The notes: generated from the letters alone by a model not told the origin. Counted from the first letter of the stretch, positions 4,413 through 49,811 are shown. The stretch is DNA of 64,000 nucleotides from an uncultured Negativibacillus sp. (GCF_944388365.1 NZ_CALXIN010000001.1:24776-88775); one strand, 5' to 3'. Made by a program: numbers and translations.

Positions 4413-5792
4413 CTATTTTCCAACACAAAAACGTGCAAATACCTGGTCAATGACCGCTTCGGAAGCGCGTTCACCGGTCAGTTCCAGCAGATCGTCAATC
4501 GCCGCATCAATGCAGACGTTGACTGCATCCAGCGTCTCGCCCATCTGCAGCGCCTGCTGTGCCTGTTCCATCGTCTTTGCCGCTTCTTCTACGCAGGCTC
4601 TCTGACGTTCGTTTGCAATGATTCCAGACGAGGAATCGAGTTGCGCCAGATTCAAAATCTCCCGCACCTGTGTTTCCAGTTCTTCTACGCCTTCACCTGC
4701 GCTGGCAGAAAGCTGTGCAATATGAGGAATCTTTTCCTTAATTTGCTCGATGTCCATTTTTCGCTCCAGGTCGGTCTTGTTGATGACTGCCACTACCGGA
4801 CGGTCCTTGATTTGGTCGATCAATTCTAAATCCTGCTGGGACAGCTCTTACGAGCTGTCGAACACTGCCAGCACCAAATCGCTGCTGTCCAGACGTTTGC
4901 GCGCCAATTCGACGCCCATTCTTTCCACAGGGTCATCGGTATCGCGCAAACCGGCAGTATCCGCCAGATGCAGCACTACATCGCCCAGACGGATGGTATC
5001 TTCGACAACATCTCGGGTGGTGCCTGGTATCTGGGTGACGATACTTTTTTGTTCTCCCGACAGCAGGTTCATCAGCGTCGATTTTCCAACATTTGGACGG
5101 CCCACAATGACCGTCCGAACTCCTTCGCGCAGCACTCTGCCGCTGTCATATTCCCGCAAAATGGTGTGCAGTGAATCACAAATCTGATCCACACTGCGGC
5201 GCAGATTGTCGTCCGACACTTCCTCAATATCCTCATCGGGATAATCCACCCACGCAGCCAATGCAGAGGACACCCCCAGCATCTTGTCTACAACCTTGTG
5301 GATCTTTTGAAACACCGCACCGTCCCGCGCGCTCAGCGCAGCCTGGGCGCTTTGGCGTCCCTGTGAAGCGATCAAATCGACCACTGCCTCCGCCTGTGTC
5401 AGATTCATTTTTCCGTTCAAAAAGGCACGACGGGTGAACTCACCAGCCTGTGCGGGTCGGGCGCCGGCACTGATGCAGGCGCGCAATGTACGCTGCACCA
5501 GATAGATGCCTCCGTGGCAGCAAATCTCCACCACATCTTCCCCTGTATAGCTCTTAGGGTTGCGATAAACAAAAACAACCGCTTCGTCGATCTCCCCCTG
5601 GTCATCATGCAGTCGTCCAAACAGTCCTCGATATCCTTCTGTCTGGGATACCTTTCGGCCCGAAACCGATACAAATACACTGTCTGCCACTGCAAATGCC
5701 TGCGGACCGGAGATGCGCACCATTCCAATGCCTCCTACTGCCACCGGCGTTGCAATCGCCGCGATGGTGTCTGCAGCAATCATGCTGTTCAT
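4413..5792 (-). pseudogene. mnmE: tRNA modification GTPase MnmE/TrmE interrupted by an in-frame TAA (4848-4850)
   Basis: ORFs 4848-5816 and 4413-4823 are in the same frame (5816-4823=993). Read-through gives '...LVLAVFDSS*ELSQQDLELIDQIKDRPVVAVINKTDL...FCVGK'. This is a colinear MnmE with G1 'GRPNVGKST', G3 'DTAG', G4 'NKTD' and the C-terminal 'CxGK'. Confidence 0.85.
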
Positions 5793-5938
5793 CCTGACCC
5801 TTCCTTTCTCTTGCAAACCTCATTTGTCCATAGATACTGTTATTATAGCAAAAAAACGCATCAATGCAAAGTATCGTGCCAAAAACAGCATAAAAATATC
5901 CCGTCAAACCAATGGTTTGACGGGATATTTTTATGCTG

Positions 5939-33308: not shown

Positions 33309-33506
33309 ATGGGATTTGTTTTAAAGAAAAAGAATCATAAAAAGGAGAAAGTAGTCTTTTCCATAAGGATCGATCGAGAATTGGCAGAACAGATCGAAAA
33401 GGCGATTACAAATACGGAAATTTCCCGCAATGAGTTCATCAGTCAAGCCATCGCGTATGCTTTGCAAAATATGGAAATAGATAGTGAGCAGGAAAATCAA
33501 CAGTAA
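33309..33506 (+). CDS. Ribbon-helix-helix (CopG/Arc-type) protein, 65 aa
   Basis: 'VVFSIRIDRELAEQIEKAI...ISRNEFISQAIAYAL' shows a beta-strand/helix/helix pattern. Confidence 0.65.
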   Translation: MGFVLKKKNHKKEKVVFSIRIDRELAEQIEKAITNTEISRNEFISQAIAYALQNMEIDSEQENQQ

Positions 33507-34132: not shown

Positions 34133-34345
34133 ATGAATATGGAGTTTTTACCAGGAAAAGTAGAGAAAGTTTTGATCTCTTTAAGAATCGAAGAACCGTT
34201 TTTAAACAAGATTGATATGGCAGCAAACCAGTGGGCTCTTTCCAGAAATGAATTTATTTGTCAGGCGATTGCGTATGCAATGGAACATATGTCAGATAAA
34301 AAAGATGATGTAATAGAAATGGAAAACGATAGAAAATCTCGTTGA
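34133..34345 (+). CDS. Ribbon-helix-helix protein, paralog of 33309-33506
   Basis: 'VLISLRIEEPFLNKIDMAA...LSRNEFICQAIAYAM'. The ATG at 34139 has better spacing to GGGGG than the one at 34133. Confidence 0.6.
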   Translation: MNMEFLPGKVEKVLISLRIEEPFLNKIDMAANQWALSRNEFICQAIAYAMEHMSDKKDDVIEMENDRKSR

Positions 34346-40174: not shown

Positions 40175-40203
40175 TTGCACTCGTCGAGTATTTCCTCTAT
40201 AAT
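40175..40203 (+). promoter_or_regulatory. Sigma-A-type promoter upstream of the 1076-aa fusion gene
   Basis: TTGCAC, 17 nt, TATAAT. Confidence 0.5.
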
Positions 40204-40281
40204 TACACTTGAACAGATATGTAAAAAAACGAACCGACAGTATTTTCTGCCAGTTTTTGGACGTTAGGAAGGAATGAATCG

Positions 40282-43200
40282 GTGAATCATAAAGTATTGT
40301 TACTAAACGCCGGTTATTCCCTTCGTGGGCTGATGAGGAAAAATCCCAATCTGCGCGATCAGTTTGCGCTGCTGGGAATCGACTTTGCAAACGAAGTGGT
40401 AATAACCGACCGAAATCAGCTGATTAACCAGATCAGCCAATCGGTAAAAGAGAATAAACTGCTTTTAATTGTAGATAATGCTCCTCAGCTGCAAGCCAGA
40501 GAGATTTTAGCACAGGGGTTTAATAAGCCGCTGCATAAGGACCCCACAGCGGTGGAAAATTTGCAGCTGTACTGCAGCAAAACCGGACGCGGAAACACAG
40601 AAGAGATGCTGCGCGGTACGATGATCCCACAGGGAGCAACGGTGCTCAGCGATCCTGCCTGCGCGCAGGCAGGATTTGTCATGTCTTATCCTTCGATCAA
40701 CATCGTGCTGGTGTCCGGTCCATCGCAGTCAACACTGCGCCTGATTGTCAACCAGCTTTATCCTGTGTTGCTCGGGAAATTTTTCCCTGGAGCCGTCATG
40801 GTGGACATTCCCCTCAAAGAGGGAAGAGAAGAGGATGTCCAGGATTACATTGAGCGGGTACAGGACCGTTTGTATGATTTTTTGCCGCTGCTGGGAGGGA
40901 CCGCAGATAATCCCGTGCTTCGTCTGATCGCAGTCAAGGAGGACGAAAAGTCTTCCCGCCAAAGCTGCAACAGCTTTTTGGAGGATCTGGTCAGCGAGTG
41001 CGGCAATGTTACGACCATTGCCCGCATTGGCATGAAAGGGCTGCGCGCTGTTGAGAAAAAACAGAAAAAATCGGCGGCAGTACCGACCGACTTTGCACAG
41101 CCGGCAACGGGGGATCATCCGTATGCGCCTATACAGCAAAGAGAACTGGCTTCTCAACAGAAGAGCAGCATCTATGCTGTAGGTGGAACAGTCGCCGCTG
41201 TGCAGCCAGAGCGTTCCACAGAAGGCATGATGCAGCAGTCATCCGGTCTGACGGACGATTATCTGATCGACGGTGATGACTTCTCGGACGATCAGGACGA
41301 TTGGGACGAGGAAACCGAGTGGGAAGAAAAACCCAAGAAAAAGAAAAAAGAAAAAAAGGTGAAGAAAAAAGAGCGGGACTACGAAGAAGAAAAACCGCGC
41401 CGTTCACCGATTATCAAGCTGTTGCTGCTTCTCTTTGTTCTGATTTTCTTAGGCTCGGTCGGCTATCTGGGCTATTATTATTGGAAATCTGCGCAGAACC
41501 GCAGTACATATGAGTCGCTTCGTGAGGTGTATGACAGCACAACGCTGTTTGCTCCGCCAGGTTATCCATCTGACTATGATAAGTCCTTTGCGGCTCTGTG
41601 GGAGATTAATCCTGATATTGTCGGATGGATCAGCATTGATGACACAGATTTGGACTATCCGGTCGTTCAGACAACCGATAATACAAAATACTACCGCATG
41701 AACTTTGAAGGCGAATACAGTGAGCATGCAGTGCCGTTTGTAGATACCGAGGTTGACTTGAAAGCGCCGAGCTCCAATATTATCATCTACGGCCACAATA
41801 TCCGCACCGACGGACAGATGTTCAACATTCTGAAGGGCTACAAGGATCTGGAATATTACCAGCAGCATCCGGTGGTTCAGTTTGACAGCGTTTATCATGA
41901 GGGAGAGTATAAGATCTTCTCCATCTTCTATACCAATACCAATGCTTCTCATGGAGAGATTTTCCCTTACCATGAGTTTATCAACGCACAGAGCACCGAG
42001 GAGATGCAGAACTACATCGACGACGTCATGATCCGCAGTATCATCAATACCGGCGTGGATGTTCTGCCGACCGATCAGCTGCTGACCCTGTCGACCTGTT
42101 CCTATGAATTTGATGATGCCCGTTTCGTCATCGTGGCAAGAAAGGTGAGGGACGGTGAGAGCTCCTCGGTGGATACCTCTCAGGCAACCATGAATCCGAC
42201 ACCGCTCTATCCAGATATTTGGTACCAGCTGTTTGGCGGCACCAAACCGGATGAAGCACAGCTCAAGGCAAATCTGCCGCAGTACTCTTCGTCGGCACAG
42301 GCTGAGGAACCACAGGACACCGTTTCTGCACAGCTGGATGAAACACCGATGGAGATACAGGATGAGGAAGGTACCTTCAGTGAGCTTGCCGATGTAAAGT
42401 ACGCACAGACTGCACAGCAAACGCCCGCGCCGCAGGAGCAAACGGTGGCAGTCCAGAGCGAGGCAGAGCCGACGCAGGAGGAAACAACGACGCAGTCGGA
42501 ACCTCCGGTGCAGGAAAGCCAGCCGGAACCTCAGGTGATGTCCGAACCGGAACAGCCCGAGCGGGAAGAATCCACGGCGCCGCAGGAGCAGGATCAAAAG
42601 CAGCCGGAACCGGAGCAGCCTTTGGAACAGGAAGTGCCTGAGGAACCGGAGCAGACAGAACCGGAGCTTCCGGATAAGATACAGACAGTACAGGAGGAAG
42701 AAGAACCTTCTATGGAAGAACCGAACCGTATCGTGGATTCTTCCAGCCTGCCAACACTGTCCGTCCAGATCAACGGCAGCACCGTCCGAGGTTCTGCTGA
42801 AGAGATTGTAGGACGAATGGTGGAAGCGGAGATGGGACCTACCTTCCAGACAGAGGCACTCAAAGCACAGGCTGTTGCCGCTTATACCTATGTGCTGTAT
42901 CACAATGAGCAGGGAACCAGCCCGTCGGTGGTTGCTAAGGATAGCGTTTCTTCCAAAGTGGCATCCGCAGTCCAGTCGGTACTGGGACAGGCTTTGTACT
43001 ATAATGGTTCTTATATCAATTCTACCTACTGTGCCTCCAATGCAGGATATTCGATGGACGCCCAGCATGTTTGGGGAAGTTATGTCCCCTATCTGGTCAG
43101 CGTAGAAAGCCCTGGAGATACCACACTGAAGGCCTACGGAGCCACCAAGACCTTCTCAGAAAGTCAGATGGCGCAGTATATTGAGGATTACCTGAATGTG

Positions 43201-43512
43201 GACCCATACAGCTGGGGAAGCCCAGAGGACTGGTTCTCCAATCCAGGGTATATCAATGGGCAGTATGTGGATACCATTGAAGTCTGCGGGCAGACAATCA
43301 CCGGCAGAAAGGTGCGGGAAAATCTGCTGAAGGCGCAGATCAACTCCGCGGCCTTTGAGGTTACATACGACGGAAACAGCTTCACCTTTACGACCTATGG
43401 CTATGGCCATGGCGTTGGTATGAGCCAACAGGGTGCAGACTATTATGCACAGCAGGGATGGAGCTATCAGGAGATTTTGACCCATTATTATACCGGTGCG
43501 CAGCTGCACTAA
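40282..43512 (+). CDS. Multidomain membrane protein: CinA-N/MoCF-like, TM helix, class-B sortase domain, P/E/Q-rich linker, SpoIID domain
   Basis: - aa ~1-170 are colinear with the CinA N-terminal domain ('MIPQGATVLSDPACAQAGFVM...IVLVSGPSQS').
- TM helix at nt 41407-41484.
- Sortase B at nt 41587-42156 ('NPDIVGWISIDDTDLDYPVVQ', 'IIYGHNI', 'LTLSTC', 'RFVIVARKV').
- SpoIID at nt ~42754-43509 ('EALKAQAVAAYTY', 'GYGHGVGMSQQGA'). Confidence 0.8.
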   Translation: MNHKVLLLNAGYSLRGLMRKNPNLRDQFALLGIDFANEVVITDRNQLINQISQSVKENKLLLIVDNAPQLQAREILAQGFNKPLHKDPTAVENLQLYCSKTGRGNTEEMLRGTMIPQGATVLSDPACAQAGFVMSYPSINIVLVSGPSQSTLRLIVNQLYPVLLGKFFPGAVMVDIPLKEGREEDVQDYIERVQDRLYDFLPLLGGTADNPVLRLIAVKEDEKSSRQSCNSFLEDLVSECGNVTTIARIGMKGLRAVEKKQKKSAAVPTDFAQPATGDHPYAPIQQRELASQQKSSIYAVGGTVAAVQPERSTEGMMQQSSGLTDDYLIDGDDFSDDQDDWDEETEWEEKPKKKKKEKKVKKKERDYEEEKPRRSPIIKLLLLLFVLIFLGSVGYLGYYYWKSAQNRSTYESLREVYDSTTLFAPPGYPSDYDKSFAALWEINPDIVGWISIDDTDLDYPVVQTTDNTKYYRMNFEGEYSEHAVPFVDTEVDLKAPSSNIIIYGHNIRTDGQMFNILKGYKDLEYYQQHPVVQFDSVYHEGEYKIFSIFYTNTNASHGEIFPYHEFINAQSTEEMQNYIDDVMIRSIINTGVDVLPTDQLLTLSTCSYEFDDARFVIVARKVRDGESSSVDTSQATMNPTPLYPDIWYQLFGGTKPDEAQLKANLPQYSSSAQAEEPQDTVSAQLDETPMEIQDEEGTFSELADVKYAQTAQQTPAPQEQTVAVQSEAEPTQEETTTQSEPPVQESQPEPQVMSEPEQPEREESTAPQEQDQKQPEPEQPLEQEVPEEPEQTEPELPDKIQTVQEEEEPSMEEPNRIVDSSSLPTLSVQINGSTVRGSAEEIVGRMVEAEMGPTFQTEALKAQAVAAYTYVLYHNEQGTSPSVVAKDSVSSKVASAVQSVLGQALYYNGSYINSTYCASNAGYSMDAQHVWGSYVPYLVSVESPGDTTLKAYGATKTFSESQMAQYIEDYLNVDPYSWGSPEDWFSNPGYINGQYVDTIEVCGQTITGRKVRENLLKAQINSAAFEVTYDGNSFTFTTYGYGHGVGMSQQGADYYAQQGWSYQEILTHYYTGAQLH

Positions 43513-43557
43513 AAACATAAAAAAGGCATGCACTTTCGTGCATGCCTTTTTTATGTT
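43513..43557. terminator. Terminator hairpin (21-bp perfect arms) in the convergent spacer
   Basis: aaacataaaaaaggcatgcac-tttc-gtgcatgccttttttatgttt. Confidence 0.8.
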
Positions 43558-43576
43558 TCCTGTTTTTCCGAGAAAG

Positions 43577-43616: not shown

Positions 43617-46600
43617 TTATCCGCGCTGGCTGTCGGATTCACCGTAGCCATAACCGGAATTGGTGCCATATCCACCGCCCTCAACAGTGACGGTAATCGT
43701 GGAAGTCTGCTGTTTTCCGGTGGATTTTTCAGTAGCAGTGATGGTAACGGTGGCAGTACCTGGGCTGACACCGGTTGCAATACCGTTGTTGTCTACATGA
43801 ACGACGTTGGAATCGCTGGAGGAGCACTGAACGGAAACGTCGCTGGCAGCCAGTTCAATACTGATGTCCAGCTCAACCGAAGAACCAACACTAACGGAGG
43901 CATCCTTTGCGGACAGACCTAAATCGGCCTGCTGATGCTGGTTGTTGTTCTGATTATTCTGGTCGCTCTGGTCGGTATTCGAGCCGCTGCTGGAGGAGGA
44001 ACCATTGGTACCTACGACGGTGACAGTGGTTTGAGAGGTGACGCTGCCGTCCTTTGTCGCCATGGTGATGGTGACGTCGGTCGTTTGATCCAGCGAATTG
44101 ATGGTGGTAACATAACCGTTTTCGTCGACATCCGCAATACGAGGATCGCTGGAGGTCCAGACAATTTCGGTGTTGGAAGGCTCGACCTTGTATTGCAGCT
44201 GAGCTTCCTCACCAGGATTCAGAACCAACGGATTTGCACTCATCTTAACCGAAGCGGTAGAGGTGCCCTCTGCCTTGACGGTAATGGTACAGCTTGCGGT
44301 CAATCCCGTGGAAGTAGTCGCTGTCAAGGTGGCCTGACCGGCAGATTTTCCGGTGATGATGACATCGGTGTCGGAATATCCGTCCTGAACGCTGATGGCA
44401 TCGCTGCTGGAGGAGAAGGTAACTTCGCCGACATCAGCGTTGGTCGGTGTGATCGACAGCTTGATGTTCTGCGCCTGACCGACGGTGAGTGTCAGGCTGC
44501 TCTGTGCAAAGACAGCCTGCGGATGGGAAGCATCCGCACCGCCTGCTGCAACGGTGATCTTGCAGGTTGCACTGTATTTTCCGTCGGAGGTAGTTACAGT
44601 GACGTCCGCAGTACCCGCCTTGACCGCAGTGAGCGAAGCTGTGGTGTCTCCGCTGGAGCTGACGCGAACGATGCTTTCATCGCTGCTCTTCCAGTTTAAA
44701 CTTGCCTGTGCGCCAGATGGCTGCAAGGTGGCAGTCAGAGTGGCAGTACCTTCCGGTTTCATTGCCAGAGCGCTGGTGTTGAGAGAGATACCGGTCGGCT
44801 CTTTGCCGTCGCTCTTGACGGTGATGGTGATATAATCAATATAGCCGCCATCGTCTGCCGTTACGGTAATCTGCGTGGTTCCTGCGCCAACAGCGGTGAC
44901 AAGACCGGTCGTTCTGTCTACCGTTGCGACCGAGGTGTTGCTCGAATCCCAGGTACAGGACTGAATTGCTGCATCGGACGGGCTGACCTTAGCGGTGAGG
45001 GTGGTAGTATCGCCCACCTTCATGCTCAGTTCACGGTCACCCTGGATAGTGATGCTCTTTACCTGACCGAGTTTCTTTGCGTATTCGGCAGCGTTAGCAT
45101 AGACTGCCGGATAGTATGCGTCCTCGTTGATGACTGCCTGATCGACATCAACACTGGCGTCTTCGCCATCACGAACTCTTCTGGCAACAACAACAAAACG
45201 TGCATCGGTAAACTCGTATGTACAGGTGGAGAGGGTCAGCAGTTCATCGCCGTATTTGACGTCGACAGGAGTGTCGAAAATGCTGCGGCGGCGAACTTCG
45301 TCGATAAATTCGTTGAACTCCTCTTCGCTCTCTGCATTAACGAAGTGGTTATACTGGAAAACGTTGCCGTTGTCGTGCTCTGCGGTGTTGTTGGTGATAA
45401 AGGCACCGATGATTTTGTAGGTGCCGGTCTTATAGACACTGTCAAAGCTGACGGTTGGATACTGCTGATAGAAGGAGAGCTGCTTATATTTGGTCAGGTC
45501 GTTGAACATCTGACCATCGTTGCGGATATTGTGTCCGTAGATGATGATATTGGTGCTTGGGGTTTTGACATCGCACTCATAGTCGATATATGGAGTACCA
45601 TAGTAGTCGTACTCGCCATCAAATCCCAAACGGCTGTAGTAATCATTGTCTGCCGCCTGCACAACAGGGAAATTGACGTTGGTGCCATCAATTTTCAGCC
45701 AGCCTTTGATATCCTCATTCTGCAGATAGAAAGGATAGAATTTTGGCAGATAGTCGTTAGGATAACCTTCGATGTTGGAGGCGTTGATTTTGCCGTCGGC
45801 AACGTCTTTTTCTGCCTGTTCCATCTGATCCTGAAGATTTGCCAGGTTTTCCTGCGACTTTTTATTCTGGGCATTGAAGTCGACCAGATAAAAGACCGAG
45901 CTGCAGAATACCAGCAGACAAATCCACATCAAAACCTTGCGGATCTTGTCAAAGGTGCTGTCGTCCTTGTTAGGGAAGATACGATATAAAATTCCTTTAA
46001 AGCCTTTTGGAGCTTTTGAAGGAGCCTGCGATTTTTTCTTTCCTTTTTTGCCGGTAGCTTCCAAAGGAGCATCCTCGGAAACGGCCAAAGCTCCCGAAGC
46101 GGCAGCAGCCATACCTTCCAGAACAGCTTCTTCAGCGTCACAGCTGTCAACAGGAGCCTGTGGATAGCTGGCGGCCAGTTTGCGGGCAAGATTAAACATT
46201 TTTGCAACAGCATCTTCGGTCATCTGGGTCAGAGAACGATAGTTGGAGGCATCCAGCTCCTGCATCATGCAGACACCGTTCAAGACAGCGGCGATATACG
46301 CCTTGCGTGTTTTGAATACGGCGTTTGGCAGAGTGATAGCAAGACCCAGCAGATCTTTTTCCTCCTGTTTAGAGGCACCCAGAGCCATGGCAGCAGCAAC
46401 GTTTGCGCTGACTGGACCAAAGGTCTGACCGATCTTATCGTTGATGCCCAGCTTCTCCAGATCCATCTGTTCCGGCTGGCAGGCATAGGTCGAATAGACC
46501 AGTTTTTTCTCCTTATCTACATTCAGGAACCGTTTTGCAGCCAGTCCGGCAGAACCGGATTCCGCAAAAGCAATGCGGATGTTTTTGCTGGCACACAGCA

Positions 46601-47387
46601 AAGCAACCGCCTGTTCGATGCCGCTGACATCAATGCCATAGACATGTTCACCAAGACGCTCGGCGGCAATGTTCAATACGGTTTTACAGTCCTTGGCAGC
46701 CTGCTGGCGGTCAGGATTGTTGTCCGAAATGCGAACGATGATTTCCGAACGCTTTTTATACAGTGCAACACAGGGTTTGGGAGCAGCCAGCAAATCTTTT
46801 AGCTGTTCTTCAACCTCTTCCATGCTCATCTCCATGATGCGAAGAACACGGCTGCAGCAGGGAGAAGAACTGGTCTTGTTGAGAATCTGATACAGGTAGT
46901 TTAAAAACAGGCTGTTTTGCTCTTCTTTGTCGGAAGGAAGAACAACGATGTGGAATCCTTCCCCTGCAATTTCAAAGCCAGGCAGCAGCGAATGGCGGCA
47001 CGGGAAGATACGTGCACCATCAGGCAGCATGGCAAGCTTGGCAGCTTCCTGCTCAGAAATTTTTGCGGATTTTACCAGACGATGTGCAATCTCGTTGTTT
47101 TCGGAGAGCGTTTTTCCGCATACCTCAGCAGCAGCGCGGATGCAGGCAGCATCGGCCGGCAGTTTGCCGGTCAGAGGACATAAAATCAATGCCTGCGGCT
47201 GTGCGCATGCTTCAAATGAATGTTTGAGACTGTCGATGTTCTTGGCAGGAAATTGCTGGATTTCATAGCCAAGCATCTTTAGCTCTTTTTCCATATAGGT
47301 TGATCCCAGAAGTCCGAGCGGATTGCCGGTGTCAACCCCGACGATAAAAACTTTCAATATATCCACCTCGATTACATCGCTGACCAT
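43617..47387 (-). CDS. Multidomain membrane protein: full-length CinA-like (MoCF plus degenerate PncC-like), TM helix, class-B sortase domain, five Big_2 Ig-like domains
   Basis: - CinA C-domain-like 'IRIAFAESGSAGLAAKRF'.
- TM helix at nt ~45876-45935.
- Sortase B at nt ~45162-45740 ('IKGWLKIDGTNVNFPVVQ', 'IIYGHNI', 'LTLSTC', 'RFVVVARRV').
- Repeated '...TLTA.V.P......W.SS....A.V...G.VTAV..G.A.ITV' units.
- The true start may be the TTG at 47357, which follows GAGGTGG. Confidence 0.8.
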   Translation of the reverse strand: MVSDVIEVDILKVFIVGVDTGNPLGLLGSTYMEKELKMLGYEIQQFPAKNIDSLKHSFEACAQPQALILCPLTGKLPADAACIRAAAEVCGKTLSENNEIAHRLVKSAKISEQEAAKLAMLPDGARIFPCRHSLLPGFEIAGEGFHIVVLPSDKEEQNSLFLNYLYQILNKTSSSPCCSRVLRIMEMSMEEVEEQLKDLLAAPKPCVALYKKRSEIIVRISDNNPDRQQAAKDCKTVLNIAAERLGEHVYGIDVSGIEQAVALLCASKNIRIAFAESGSAGLAAKRFLNVDKEKKLVYSTYACQPEQMDLEKLGINDKIGQTFGPVSANVAAAMALGASKQEEKDLLGLAITLPNAVFKTRKAYIAAVLNGVCMMQELDASNYRSLTQMTEDAVAKMFNLARKLAASYPQAPVDSCDAEEAVLEGMAAAASGALAVSEDAPLEATGKKGKKKSQAPSKAPKGFKGILYRIFPNKDDSTFDKIRKVLMWICLLVFCSSVFYLVDFNAQNKKSQENLANLQDQMEQAEKDVADGKINASNIEGYPNDYLPKFYPFYLQNEDIKGWLKIDGTNVNFPVVQAADNDYYSRLGFDGEYDYYGTPYIDYECDVKTPSTNIIIYGHNIRNDGQMFNDLTKYKQLSFYQQYPTVSFDSVYKTGTYKIIGAFITNNTAEHDNGNVFQYNHFVNAESEEEFNEFIDEVRRRSIFDTPVDVKYGDELLTLSTCTYEFTDARFVVVARRVRDGEDASVDVDQAVINEDAYYPAVYANAAEYAKKLGQVKSITIQGDRELSMKVGDTTTLTAKVSPSDAAIQSCTWDSSNTSVATVDRTTGLVTAVGAGTTQITVTADDGGYIDYITITVKSDGKEPTGISLNTSALAMKPEGTATLTATLQPSGAQASLNWKSSDESIVRVSSSGDTTASLTAVKAGTADVTVTTSDGKYSATCKITVAAGGADASHPQAVFAQSSLTLTVGQAQNIKLSITPTNADVGEVTFSSSSDAISVQDGYSDTDVIITGKSAGQATLTATTSTGLTASCTITVKAEGTSTASVKMSANPLVLNPGEEAQLQYKVEPSNTEIVWTSSDPRIADVDENGYVTTINSLDQTTDVTITMATKDGSVTSQTTVTVVGTNGSSSSSGSNTDQSDQNNQNNNQHQQADLGLSAKDASVSVGSSVELDISIELAASDVSVQCSSSDSNVVHVDNNGIATGVSPGTATVTITATEKSTGKQQTSTITVTVEGGGYGTNSGYGYGESDSQRG

Positions 47388-47469: not shown

Positions 47470-48645
47470 TTAAGAATTGGAAATAGAAAGTTCCTCGATA
47501 TTTTCGATGGCGCGGGAGATCAGTTCCTCCTGCTTCATCTCATCCTCAGCAAATTTGACAAACTTCAGCTGTGGTTTTGTACGCGGGTGTTTTGGCGTAA
47601 ATACTGTACAGCAGTCCTCGTAAGGGAGGATAGAAGTTTCGAAGGTGTCGATTTTGCGGGAGATGATGACGATCTCGTCCTTGTCCATGCCGATGACCGG
47701 ACGCAGTACCGGCATGTCGCAAGCTTCGTCGGTGCAAGCGATCGCCTGAATGGTCTGGCTTGCAACCTGGCCCACACTTTCGCCGGTGACCAGCGCCTCG
47801 CACTCGTTGGCACGGGCAACGCGGCAGGCAATCTTCATCATATAGCGACGCATGATGATGGTGAACAGATCTTCCGGACACTGGTCACGGATTGCTTCCT
47901 GAATCTCGGTGAAAGGAACGATGTACATTTTGATGCGTCCACAGTAGGAACACATCTTCTGTGCAAGGTCGATTACCTTCTGTTTTGCACGCTCCGAGGT
48001 GTACGGAGGAGAAACAAAATGGATCGCACTGATTTCCAGTCCGCGCTTTGCCATCATATAGCCGGCAACAGGGCTGTCAATACCGCCGGAGATCAGAAGC
48101 ATTGCTTTGCCGCCGCTTCCTACCGGAATGCCGCCGGCACCTTTGATCTGGCTGCCATGAATGTAGGCTGCATAGTCACGTACTTCTACCATAACGGTGA
48201 CGTCAGGGTGATGCACGTCAACGGTCAGATGCGGGAATTTTTCCAGCAGATACTCACCGACTCCTGCACAGATTTCCGGAGATTTGAGCGGGAAGGTTTT
48301 GTCCGAACGTTTTGCCTCCACTTTAAAGGTGGCAGCGTTCTCCAGTTCCTCTGCAAGGTATGCGGCAGCGGTGGTTTTGATGAGTTCAAAATCCTTATCC
48401 ACAACACAGGCACGAGTCAGTGCAGCAATACCAAATACCTTTTGCAGGCGGTCGACTGCCTCGTCCAAATCATAGCCGTCCTCGTCCGGCTCCACATAGA
48501 TGGTGGACTGGGCCTTTTTAAAGTGGAAGGAGCCGACCGGCATCAGCTTGCGGCGGGCATTTTTGATCAATCGGTCTTCAAACGCATGGCGGTTAAGACC
48601 CTTGAGGGCGATTTCGCCGTTTTTGAGCAGAATTACTTCTTTCAT
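47470..48645 (-). CDS. thiI: tRNA 4-thiouridine(8) synthase ThiI
   Basis: THUMP N-terminus and PP-loop 'LLISGGIDSPVAGYMMAKRG'. Confidence 0.93.
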   Translation of the reverse strand: MKEVILLKNGEIALKGLNRHAFEDRLIKNARRKLMPVGSFHFKKAQSTIYVEPDEDGYDLDEAVDRLQKVFGIAALTRACVVDKDFELIKTTAAAYLAEELENAATFKVEAKRSDKTFPLKSPEICAGVGEYLLEKFPHLTVDVHHPDVTVMVEVRDYAAYIHGSQIKGAGGIPVGSGGKAMLLISGGIDSPVAGYMMAKRGLEISAIHFVSPPYTSERAKQKVIDLAQKMCSYCGRIKMYIVPFTEIQEAIRDQCPEDLFTIIMRRYMMKIACRVARANECEALVTGESVGQVASQTIQAIACTDEACDMPVLRPVIGMDKDEIVIISRKIDTFETSILPYEDCCTVFTPKHPRTKPQLKFVKFAEDEMKQEELISRAIENIEELSISNS

Positions 48646-48671
48646 ACAATACCTCTCTATTCAAAATGGGA

Positions 48672-49811
48672 TTATTTTCGGAAACGTTCCAGACCCTGCT
48701 GCAAAGCGGACAGAAATACAGGAACCTCTTCAAGGGTGTTATAGCGGCCAAAGCTCAGGCGAATGGCGCTGTCGGCGCGCTGATGTTCCAGTCCCATGGA
48801 GGAAAGAACATGGCTGGCGCCGCCTTTGGCACAGGCAGAACCGCTGGAAACATAAATATTTTGTTCTTCCAAAAAGTGAAGCATGATCTCCGAACGGACT
48901 CCCAATGCAGAGAAGTTCAGAATATAAGGTGTCGCGTCGGAGGGAGAGTTGATGCAGATGTCAGGAAGTTTTGTCAATCCATCCAAAAGTGCGTCCCGAA
49001 TTTGGGTTACTCTTTCATGATTTTCCTGTTGTTCCTTCATTAGAAGTTCTGCGCAAAGTCCCATAGCACAGGCGCCGGAGATATTTTCGGTGCCAGGACG
49101 GACATTCTTTTCCTGCCCGCCGCCGAAGGTAACCGGACGGAAGCGTGTCCCTTTTTTGATGTACAGTGCGCCGATGCCCTTGGGCGCATAGATCTTGTGA
49201 CCGCTGACCGACAAAAAGTCGACATCCAGCGTTTTTCCCAGACGCAGCGGCTCCTTGCAGTAGGCCTGCACGGCATCACAGTGGATGAGCAGCTGCGGAT
49301 ATTTGCGGCGCAGCAGGCGGCTGACCTGTCCCACCGGCAGGATGCTGCCGACCTCATTGTTGACCGCCATCATCGAAACCAGCACGGTTTTGTCATCCAC
49401 CGCATCCAGCACCTGCTGCGCAGTGATCTGACCATTCTGGTCAGGCGTCAGGCGGACAATCTCCCAGCCCTCACTCTCGAGATATTTAACGGTATTGAGC
49501 ACCGCGTCATGCTCAAAGGCAGTGGTGACAATGCGATTTCCAAGGCGGCGCTGTGCACGGGCTGCTCCCAGAATGGCAATGTTATCGGCGTCGGTTCCGC
49601 CGGAGGTAAAATAAATTTCCGAGCTTTGGCATCCCAGCGAACGGGCGACCTGCTCCCGCGCAGTGTCCAGCCGTTTCTGCGCCTGAAATCCCTTGCGGTG
49701 CAAGGAGGATGGATTTCCGTAGCAGTCGGTCAGCATCTCATAGACAAGTTTGGCGGCTTCCTCTCTGGTTCGGGTCGTCGCGCTGTTATCATAGTAAATT
49801 TCTTCCGGCAA
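48672..49811 (-). CDS. Cysteine desulfurase (NifS/IscS-like, class V aminotransferase)
   Basis: PLP-lysine 'SVSGHKIYAPKGIGALY' and active-site loop 'SSGSACA'. Adjacent to thiI. Confidence 0.9.
   Translation of the reverse strand: MPEEIYYDNSATTRTREEAAKLVYEMLTDCYGNPSSLHRKGFQAQKRLDTAREQVARSLGCQSSEIYFTSGGTDADNIAILGAARAQRRLGNRIVTTAFEHDAVLNTVKYLESEGWEIVRLTPDQNGQITAQQVLDAVDDKTVLVSMMAVNNEVGSILPVGQVSRLLRRKYPQLLIHCDAVQAYCKEPLRLGKTLDVDFLSVSGHKIYAPKGIGALYIKKGTRFRPVTFGGGQEKNVRPGTENISGACAMGLCAELLMKEQQENHERVTQIRDALLDGLTKLPDICINSPSDATPYILNFSALGVRSEIMLHFLEEQNIYVSSGSACAKGGASHVLSSMGLEHQRADSAIRLSFGRYNTLEEVPVFLSALQQGLERFRK

Follow-up and report, generated by a model that had tools for sequence, protein, structure and literature searches.

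What kind of protein is formed when a class B sortase and a SpoIID-type lytic transglycosylase are encoded in a single reading frame, and does the covalent link between them matter? This question is raised by a gene in a stretch of 64,000 nucleotides from an uncultured Negativibacillus sp. (GCF_944388365.1, NZ_CALXIN010000001.1:24776-88775), here called the window and numbered from its first letter. A preliminary description of the window had noticed the fusion of the two domains and had proposed that two peptidoglycan chemistries were thereby united in one polypeptide. The fusion itself is borne out: positions 40282-43512 (+) form one uninterrupted open reading frame (ORF) of 1076 amino acids (aa), with a GTG start, a TAA stop and an AGGAAGG ribosome-binding site (RBS) 9 nt 5' of the start, and the intact ORF recurs in many independent assemblies. 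Overlooked in that earlier reading were the first 400 aa, which hold a CinA-like domain and a transmembrane helix, a convergent paralogue, and the splitting of the gene in sister species. In this protein all three members of a conserved gene cluster (cinA, srtB and spoIID-like) are fused. Judged from its sequence, it would be a single-pass membrane protein with the CinA-N-like domain inside the cell and the sortase B domain, a tether and the SpoIID/LytB-type domain outside. The best explanation, which we hold to be about evenly balanced between right and wrong, is that it represents a membrane-tethered wall-remodelling transglycosylase that would be positioned by the sortase module and is probably expressed vegetatively. 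The layout of the gene is as follows.

40282-43512 (+), complete coding sequence (ORF reading, full-length homologues, cluster members)
40282-41076 (+), CinA-N-like cytoplasmic domain, MoCF-type fold with KH-like subdomain, aa 1-265 (NF001813, AlphaFold2 (AF2), Foldseek)
41077-41406 (+), disordered cytoplasmic linker, aa 266-375, with the Lys-rich end KKKKKEKKVKKKER (predicted local distance difference test (pLDDT) <50, composition)
41407-41478 (+), lone transmembrane helix, aa ~376-399, SPIIKLLLLLFVLIFLGSVGYLGYYYW (hydrophobicity scan; AF2 helix 376-398)
41479-42267 (+), class B sortase domain with conserved C-terminal tail, predicted extracellular, aa 400-662 (TIGR03064, alignments to SrtB structures in the Protein Data Bank, Foldseek)
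42268-42747 (+), acidic P/E/Q-rich disordered tether, aa 663-822 (composition, charge, pLDDT ~30)
42748-43509 (+), SpoIID/LytB-type lytic transglycosylase domain, aa 823-1076 (TIGR02669, alignment to 5I1T/5TXU/4RWR, AF2, Foldseek)

The helix at aa ~376-399 is the only hydrophobic helix of the protein. Since a positive cluster lies just before it, the positive-inside rule would place the N-terminus and the CinA-like part in the cytoplasm and everything after the helix outside the cell. All peptide strings quoted previously were found in place: NPTP at aa 638, LPTLS at aa 823, AEEIVGRMVEAEMGP at aa 839, YCASNAGYS at aa 916 and TYGYGHGVGMSQQGADYYA at aa 1038.

The C-terminal domain belongs to the SpoIID/LytB family. 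It scores 142.9 bits against TIGR02669 (cut-off 83.3), covering model positions 15-268 of 270, and 38.1 bits against PF08486 (cut-off 23), and the SpoIID proteins of C. difficile and B. anthracis align to it at E ~2e-29. Modelling of the domains and a comparison of the SpoIID catalytic residues had been suggested earlier and were carried out here. The AF2 model of aa 824-1076 has a pLDDT >90 and was superposed by Foldseek on 5i1t_A with a template modelling (TM) score of 0.80 and a root-mean-square deviation of 2.4 Å, while the sortase fold matches SrtB. The catalytic Glu of motif 1 is E101 in C. difficile and E88 in B. subtilis (PMC6221140, PMC6934232). Its counterpart in the target is E850 (codon 42829-42831), since VEAEM aligns with LAGEM. 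Y916 (codon 43027-43029) aligns with C. difficile Y194 (5TXU numbering), the sole sugar-orienting residue whose mutation abolishes activity (PMC6221140, PMC6934232). Neither E850 nor Y916 varies among the aligned close fused relatives, and the sortase triad is intact as well.

The domain is nevertheless not an equivalog of sporulation SpoIID by the NCBI curated criteria. With TIGR02870 (spore_II_D equivalog) it reaches 163.6 bits, below the cut-off of 234.75, and with 138-178 bits seven further proteins of the sortase-associated subfamily also lie below this cut-off, while all pass the SpoIID/LytB domain model. Clostridial SpoIID carries a motif 2, yCxdxxHCQ, with the Zn ligands H134/C140/H145/C146 (PMC6221140, PMC6934232). 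The corresponding region of the target has 8 residues versus ~35 in C. difficile SpoIID and no Cys/His motif; ~20-27 residues are missing, and the Zn-binding motif-2 loop is therefore absent. This Zn feature is not universal, since B. anthracis SpoIID likewise lacks the Zn ligands. Of the likeness to the stand-alone, sigma-E-dependent SpoIID drawn in the preliminary description, the catalytic Glu and Tyr and the fold thus stand. The protein belongs to a sortase-associated SpoIID/LytB subfamily, the members of which always have a long low-complexity spacer and on which automatic 'stage II sporulation protein D' labels are probably over-annotations.

The sortase domain is of class B. Pfam PF04203 covers aa 450-622, TIGR03064 gives 168.4 bits (above its cut-off of 153.75), solved SrtB structures align to it with E values down to 9e-36, and Foldseek matches SrtB as well. 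H505 (41794-41796), C606 (42097-42099; in LTLSTC, the TLxTC motif) and R614 (42121-42123), the codons of which were verified, align with H130, C223 and R233 of S. aureus SrtB. The triad is intact in the window protein and in all close relatives. The conserved tail NPxPLYPDxWYxLFGGTKP belongs to the sortase module, so that the linker is shorter than the ~195 aa given before, nearer 150-160 aa: by composition the tether spans aa 663-822 (160 aa, with E36, Q26, P22 and a net charge of -38) and by AF2 disorder aa ~669-816 (pLDDT ~30). It is hypervariable among homologues while the folded domains are conserved, and no tandem DNA repeats were found in it. NPTP and LPTLS, described previously as weak resemblances to sorting motifs, are no sorting motifs: LPTLS is unconserved and NPxP lies in the conserved structural tail of the sortase module.

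The fusion is widespread. An exhaustive search of 1.84 billion representatives was followed by domain mapping, and the best 150 representatives at 50% identity were examined. SrtB and a SpoIID-like domain are joined in one chain of 600-1400 aa in 93 of these 150, and in 38 of those 93 the N-terminus is CinA-like as well. At 90% identity the closest cluster comprises 128 proteins; among the 15 listed, 11 have a length of 1076 aa and come from independent assemblies. The same single-chain layout is found in nine diverged clusters (46-63% identical). All 93 fused representatives retain the SpoIID Glu, the Tyr position holds Y or F in 88 of them and GYGHGxGxSQxG is conserved at ~97%. Counted irrespective of kinship (proteins P0241-P0383), the complete sortase triad of His, Cys and Arg remains in 41 of the 93 and is lost in 52. 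These losses are concerted, as in the change from LTLSTC to LTLVTD, with neighbouring positions conserved. What is robust is the conclusion that, in many lineages, a sortase fold whose active site is predicted to be dead has been kept in fusion with a transglycosylase with conserved catalytic residues. Because of these losses sortase activity is not a family-wide requirement, and the union of two peptidoglycan chemistries in one polypeptide, as postulated previously, is not a conserved principle: the Glu is invariant (93/93) but the triad is lost in 52 of 93.

These counts also bear on the proposal of joint catalysis, in which the sortase would remove or rearrange stem peptides and the SpoIID-like domain would cut the denuded glycan, thereby replacing SpoIIP. 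To our knowledge, no sortase hydrolyses peptidoglycan stem peptides. Both catalytic sets are intact in the target and all close relatives, operon or fusion linkage extends across many lineages, and canonical SpoIID requires denuded glycan (PMC6221140), while no amidase gene is present in the cluster. However, more than half of the fused family does without the triad while the Glu is invariant, and sister species do without the covalent link (see below), which makes joint catalysis quite improbable.

Another possibility is that the SpoIID-like part is cargo of the sortase, so that a cut within the tether would release the transglycosylase or attach part of the protein to the wall. Class B sortase genes typically adjoin the genes of their substrates, as in isd and pilus loci, and the adjacency of srtB and spoIID-like genes is very well conserved. 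The Pro/Glu-rich tether moreover resembles the wall-spanning regions of sorted proteins, and a SpoIID-like protein is among the predicted sortase substrates of C. acetobutylicum (PMC4877998). Several findings argue against such a role. The tether has no conserved sorting motif (in NPxP a Pro takes the place of the scissile Thr), the protein ends with the SpoIID fold and not with a C-terminal sorting signal, and no ORF with a sorting signal (motif, hydrophobic stretch and basic tail) was found in the window or in the related loci L001-L011, so that within this scope the nearby substrate usual for class B sortases is missing. A sortase would also transfer the part N-terminal to the cut, which here is the sortase itself and not the transglycosylase, and a cargo role fits poorly with the loss of the triad in more than half of the fused representatives. 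The cargo explanation is consequently given a low probability.

Is the covalent tether needed? The related loci, which come from Negativibacillus massiliensis, Clostridium sp. CAG:169 and metagenome-assembled genomes of Oscillospiraceae/Ruminococcaceae, indicate that it is not. In 7 of 10 related genomes, that of N. massiliensis among them, two adjacent genes take the place of the fusion:

L003, 11953-12984, SpoIID-like half as a separate gene (proteins P0121-P0133)
L004, L005, L006, L008, L009 and L010, split loci at equivalent positions (same protein series)

The first gene encodes CinA-N, the transmembrane helix and SrtB (~650 aa) and ends with …QLKANLH(S/N)*; its stop is followed by a spacer of 20-60 nt with a strong AAGGAGG RBS that serves the second gene, a SpoIID-like protein of ~319 aa. 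This protein is well conserved and abundant, with 544 members in cluster P0122 and 673 in P0132, and starts with the conserved peptide MIQxQNxQQPPQGVTAELYSQLEDYLALG, which is decayed in the fused forms and might serve as a docking or export signal. L001, L002 and L007 have single-ORF versions, as do dozens of diverged representatives. The tether of the window protein holds relics of the former gene boundary: it reads …ANLPQ|YSSS…TP|MEIQ…GTFSELADVKY where the split genes read …ANLHS* and then MIQ…AELYSQLEDYLALG. No RBS precedes the internal Met in the window; the former spacer is now in frame and its RBS has decayed.

The presence of two genes in sister species could be taken to mean that the fusion is artificial, two genes having been joined by an assembly error or a frameshift. 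This was ruled out, and is left with a negligible probability, by the uninterrupted ORF, the recurrence of the same 1076-aa protein in independent assemblies, the single-ORF forms of L001, L002, L007 and the diverged representatives, and the former spacer of the window gene, which is now in frame and the RBS of which has decayed.

Distant stand-alone SpoIID-like relatives, 42-52% identical, were read on their own contigs. They have a signal peptide, a lipoprotein signal or a transmembrane anchor, followed by a low-complexity spacer of ~130-180 aa and the domain; the long spacer is thus a trait of the subfamily and not unique to the window gene. Four contexts were informative, and in all four a sortase gene lies directly 5' of the spoIID-like gene:

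L012: srtB, spoIID-like
L014: nifS, thiI, cinA (186 aa), srtB (324 aa), spoIID-like (402 aa)
L015: nifS, thiI, cinA, srtB, a gene for an SH3_3/3D protein (4832-5836), spoIID-like
L016: ypeB, nifS, thiI, a gene for a 921-aa protein with MoCF, KH, CinA and Sortase domains, spoIID-like

It follows from these contexts that cinA, srtB and spoIID-like form a conserved neighbourhood, the members of which became fused in several combinations. The slot after nifS-thiI thus holds cinA-srtB-spoIID-like in distant relatives. The insert in L015, a gene for an SH3_3 and 3D-domain protein of another wall-binding, transglycosylase-like fold, supports a wall-remodelling theme. Neighbour-joining trees of the separate domains are star-like and leave the order of fusion and fission undecided; the SpoIID tree groups all split forms. 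We infer that separate genes were fused and later split again, since the split forms group in this tree and, unlike the distant stand-alone relatives, have no signal peptide.

The N-terminal domain resembles CinA in fold more than in sequence. NF001813 (CinA) matches aa 24-164 weakly (E=9e-9), with 34.8 bits against a cut-off of 379 (NF001813 / TIGR00200), which is far from a full CinA. The PncC deamidase domain is absent from the 1076-aa protein and the MoCF and KH fold alone is present. The AF2 model of aa 1-265 has a pLDDT >90, and its best Foldseek matches are T. thermophilus CinA, 4cta and 4ct8 (E=4e-12, ~285 columns, MoCF-type and KH), and T. acidophilum CinA 3kbq (TM score 0.67). A homologue search with this domain alone returned fragments and chimeric contigs only. 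The protein might be a trans-envelope device, in which the CinA-like domain would bind a nucleotide or metabolite and so control or localise the active sortase and the tethered transglycosylase outside. Hints of such a device are the conserved cinA-srtB gene order, the repeated origin of fusions across the membrane and the more frequent retention of the sortase triad with a CinA-like N-terminus (28/38) than without (13/55), in the fused set and with kinship ignored. If it were true, wall remodelling or surface-protein attachment would be coupled to the internal state of the cell or to the division machinery; at present we regard it as clearly unlikely.

When is the gene expressed? The flanking control elements are listed here.

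40175-40203 (+), sigma-A-type promoter TTGCAC-17-TATAAT (direct reading; kept in 10/10 orthologous loci)
40204-40281 (+), 5' leader with the element CCGACAGTATTTTCTGCC, a T-run, the Shine-Dalgarno sequence (SD) AGGAAGG and a mini-ORF (conservation across loci)
43513-43568 (+), strong intrinsic terminator, a 20-bp stem followed by a T-run (terminator scan)

The vegetative-type promoter reported in the preliminary description is present, sigma-A-like and phylogenetically conserved. The same hexamers and spacing, TTCTTGCAC-N17-TTCCTCTATAAT, occur in 10 of 10 orthologous loci, and their retention while the flanks diverge is good comparative evidence for a functional promoter of this type. It was missed by a generic consensus scan because the -35 hexamer matches the consensus at only 3 of 6 positions. 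The gene is presumably monocistronic, since the thrS terminator lies upstream of it and the 20-bp-stem terminator follows its stop codon. The leader was compared between the window (40204-40284) and the equivalents in L001, L002, L006, L007, L008 and L010. In the RNAalifold consensus CCGACAGTATTTTCTGCC pairs with the SD GGAAGGAA and with UCGGU at the GTG start, which is overlapped by a mini-ORF of three codons (ATG AAT CGG TGA). The pairing includes one compensatory pair, the fold z-score is 0.16 and the shuffle statistics are weak; no Rfam family was found in the leader at gathering score. The leader may act as a translational control element.

It is proposed that the transglycosylase is the invariant catalytic payload, which would cut glycan strands of the peptidoglycan outside the membrane. 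The sortase module would hold and position it at the membrane-wall interface, and in this lineage is probably still an active transpeptidase on some substrate. The long tether would let the transglycosylase reach into the wall, away from the membrane. This wall remodelling would take place during growth or division and would not be that of a sigma-E-dependent engulfment SpoIID. A role in growth or division is most likely in view of the monocistronic gene, its housekeeping neighbourhood near oriC, the sigma-A-type promoter and the terminator.

Several observations weigh against this explanation. N. massiliensis is reported to form spores (PMC5328706) and related clusters lie near ypeB or genes for small acid-soluble spore proteins (SASP); a sigma-A-like promoter is compatible with expression during sporulation. 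The glycan substrate of canonical SpoIID has to be denuded by an amidase, which the gene cluster does not encode. The split SpoIID-like protein has neither a signal peptide nor a transmembrane helix, which is hard to fit with an extracellular role barring an export route. Furthermore, the triad is intact in 62 of 66 SrtB matches without a SpoIID domain (Fisher p ~1e-11), a contrast with the fused set that is inflated by ascertainment because the sortase-only proteins had to resemble the active sortase of the query to rank among the top matches.

The signs of sporulation lead to the alternative that the protein is the engulfment SpoIID of the organism, in which CinA, transmembrane helix and sortase replace the usual N-terminal anchor. 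The conserved catalytic Glu and Tyr and the fold of C. difficile SpoIID (TM score 0.80) would fit, as would the reported sporulation of the genus and the position of related clusters beside ypeB, Spore_YtfJ and SASP genes; some subfamily members are labelled 'stage II sporulation protein D' by JGI. Neither the 64-kb window nor any of 18 loci showed a second gene of the SpoIID family, which weighs little because the sequence examined is a small fraction of any genome. On the other hand, the target and all seven tested subfamily members remain below the spore_II_D cut-off, there is no motif-2 loop, the promoter conserved across loci resembles the sigma-A and not the sigma-E type, and canonical SpoIID, which stays close to the membrane, has nothing like a tether of 150-350 aa. 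Nor are spoIIP and spoIIM adjacent; neither is present in the window or the loci. We consider an engulfment role unlikely and rank it, like the cargo and joint-catalysis explanations, below that of a membrane-anchored wall-remodelling enzyme.

The neighbourhood is that of the chromosome origin, with noc/parB, mnmG, mnmE, jag, yidC, rnpA, dnaA, dnaN, recF, gyrB and gyrA in the window. Further on the order is rny, nudix, thrS, the target, the convergent paralogue, thiI and nifS, which is common to the orthologous loci. ThrRS is 95% identical to that of N. massiliensis while the domains of the target are only 54-82% identical. The paralogue is the following.

43617-47387 (-), convergent paralogue of 1256 aa (profile searches)

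It combines a full CinA (MoCF, KH and PncC) with a transmembrane helix, an SrtB domain whose triad is intact, five repeats of the Big_2 type and a tail rich in N, Q and S. The nifS-thiI pair (47470-49811) lies upstream of it, a synteny that is kept in L003, L006, L008, L010 and L011. The Big_2 paralogue apparently occupies the ancestral slot after nifS-thiI, and the sortase module seems to carry interchangeable C-terminal payloads. Elsewhere in the window, mnmE (~4430-5816, -) has an in-frame TAA at 4848-4850 (…AVFDSS*ELSQQD…), after which the frame runs on to the normal C-terminus …FCVGK; this could reflect a pseudogene, a strain mutation or a sequencing error. Two small paralogous ORFs of 65 and 70 aa (33309-33506 and 34133-34345, +) share …SRNEFI(S/C)QAIAYA(L/M)… and by eye only resemble ribbon-helix-helix proteins; they lie within a 2.4-kb stretch without long ORFs. 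An anti-phage defence system was considered and rejected, PADLOC being without matches.

Sortases have been studied as enzymes that attach surface proteins and SpoIID as a sporulation enzyme. No description of an architecture or operon that combines a sortase with SpoIID, CinA or a lytic transglycosylase was found in open-access papers and preprints. All domains are from known families; new are the conserved way in which they are associated, the frequency of the pseudo-sortase state and the link to CinA across the membrane. A widespread and apparently undescribed association thus emerges in gut Clostridia, between a class B sortase that by its residues is often catalytically dead, a SpoIID-type cutter that always keeps its catalytic Glu across the fused set, and a CinA-like protein. 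It offers a testable hypothesis for a new wall-remodelling module in abundant, poorly studied gut anaerobes; it also supplies naturally occurring 'pseudo-sortases' and gives a first hint of what membrane-linked CinA domains may do.

How does the protein compare with known systems? CinA proteins combine COG1058, KH and PncC domains. Aa 1-265 of the target model confidently as the MoCF-type and KH part, the neighbouring paralogue carries all three CinA domains, and in distant relatives a separate cinA lies directly 5' of srtB. Unlike CinA, the target lacks PncC, has very weak sequence similarity and is membrane-tethered within an envelope protein. With the class B sortases of S. aureus, B. anthracis and C. 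difficile (SrtB) the target shares the TIGR03064 match, the aligned triad and a sortase domain that follows an N-terminal membrane anchor and would lie outside the cell. Differences are the ~375 cytoplasmic residues that precede the anchor, the ~410 that follow the domain, the C-terminal tail NPxPLYPDxWYxLFGGTKP, the lack of a sorting-signal substrate nearby (window and L001-L011) and the loss of the triad in many fused relatives.

The SpoIID proteins of B. subtilis, B. anthracis and C. difficile (4RWR, 5I1T, 5TXU) have the same fold (TM scores 0.76-0.80, ~30% identity), and the target keeps the Glu of motif 1 (GxxVxxEM), the orienting Tyr and the C-terminal GYGHGVGMSQ. In contrast to these, it stays below the TIGR02870 cut-off, is without ~20-27 residues including the clostridial Zn-binding motif 2, has a sigma-A-like instead of a sigma-E-type promoter and, within the window and the loci, is accompanied by neither spoIIP nor spoIIM. 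Whereas SpoIID consists of a short anchor and the domain, in the target a CinA-like domain, a sortase and a tether of 160 aa come before the domain. SpoIID-type enzymes also function outside sporulation, in vegetative or division-related remodelling of the wall, as exemplified by B. subtilis LytB (PMC6934232) and by the SpoIID homologue at the division septum of Waddlia/Chlamydiae (PMC13104611). Unlike these, the target has a membrane sortase and a CinA-like domain as targeting module instead of wall-binding repeats, and a partner amidase such as LytC is not evident for it. What it has in common with the non-sporulation SpoIID/LytB proteins is a domain that passes TIGR02669 and is joined to targeting modules.

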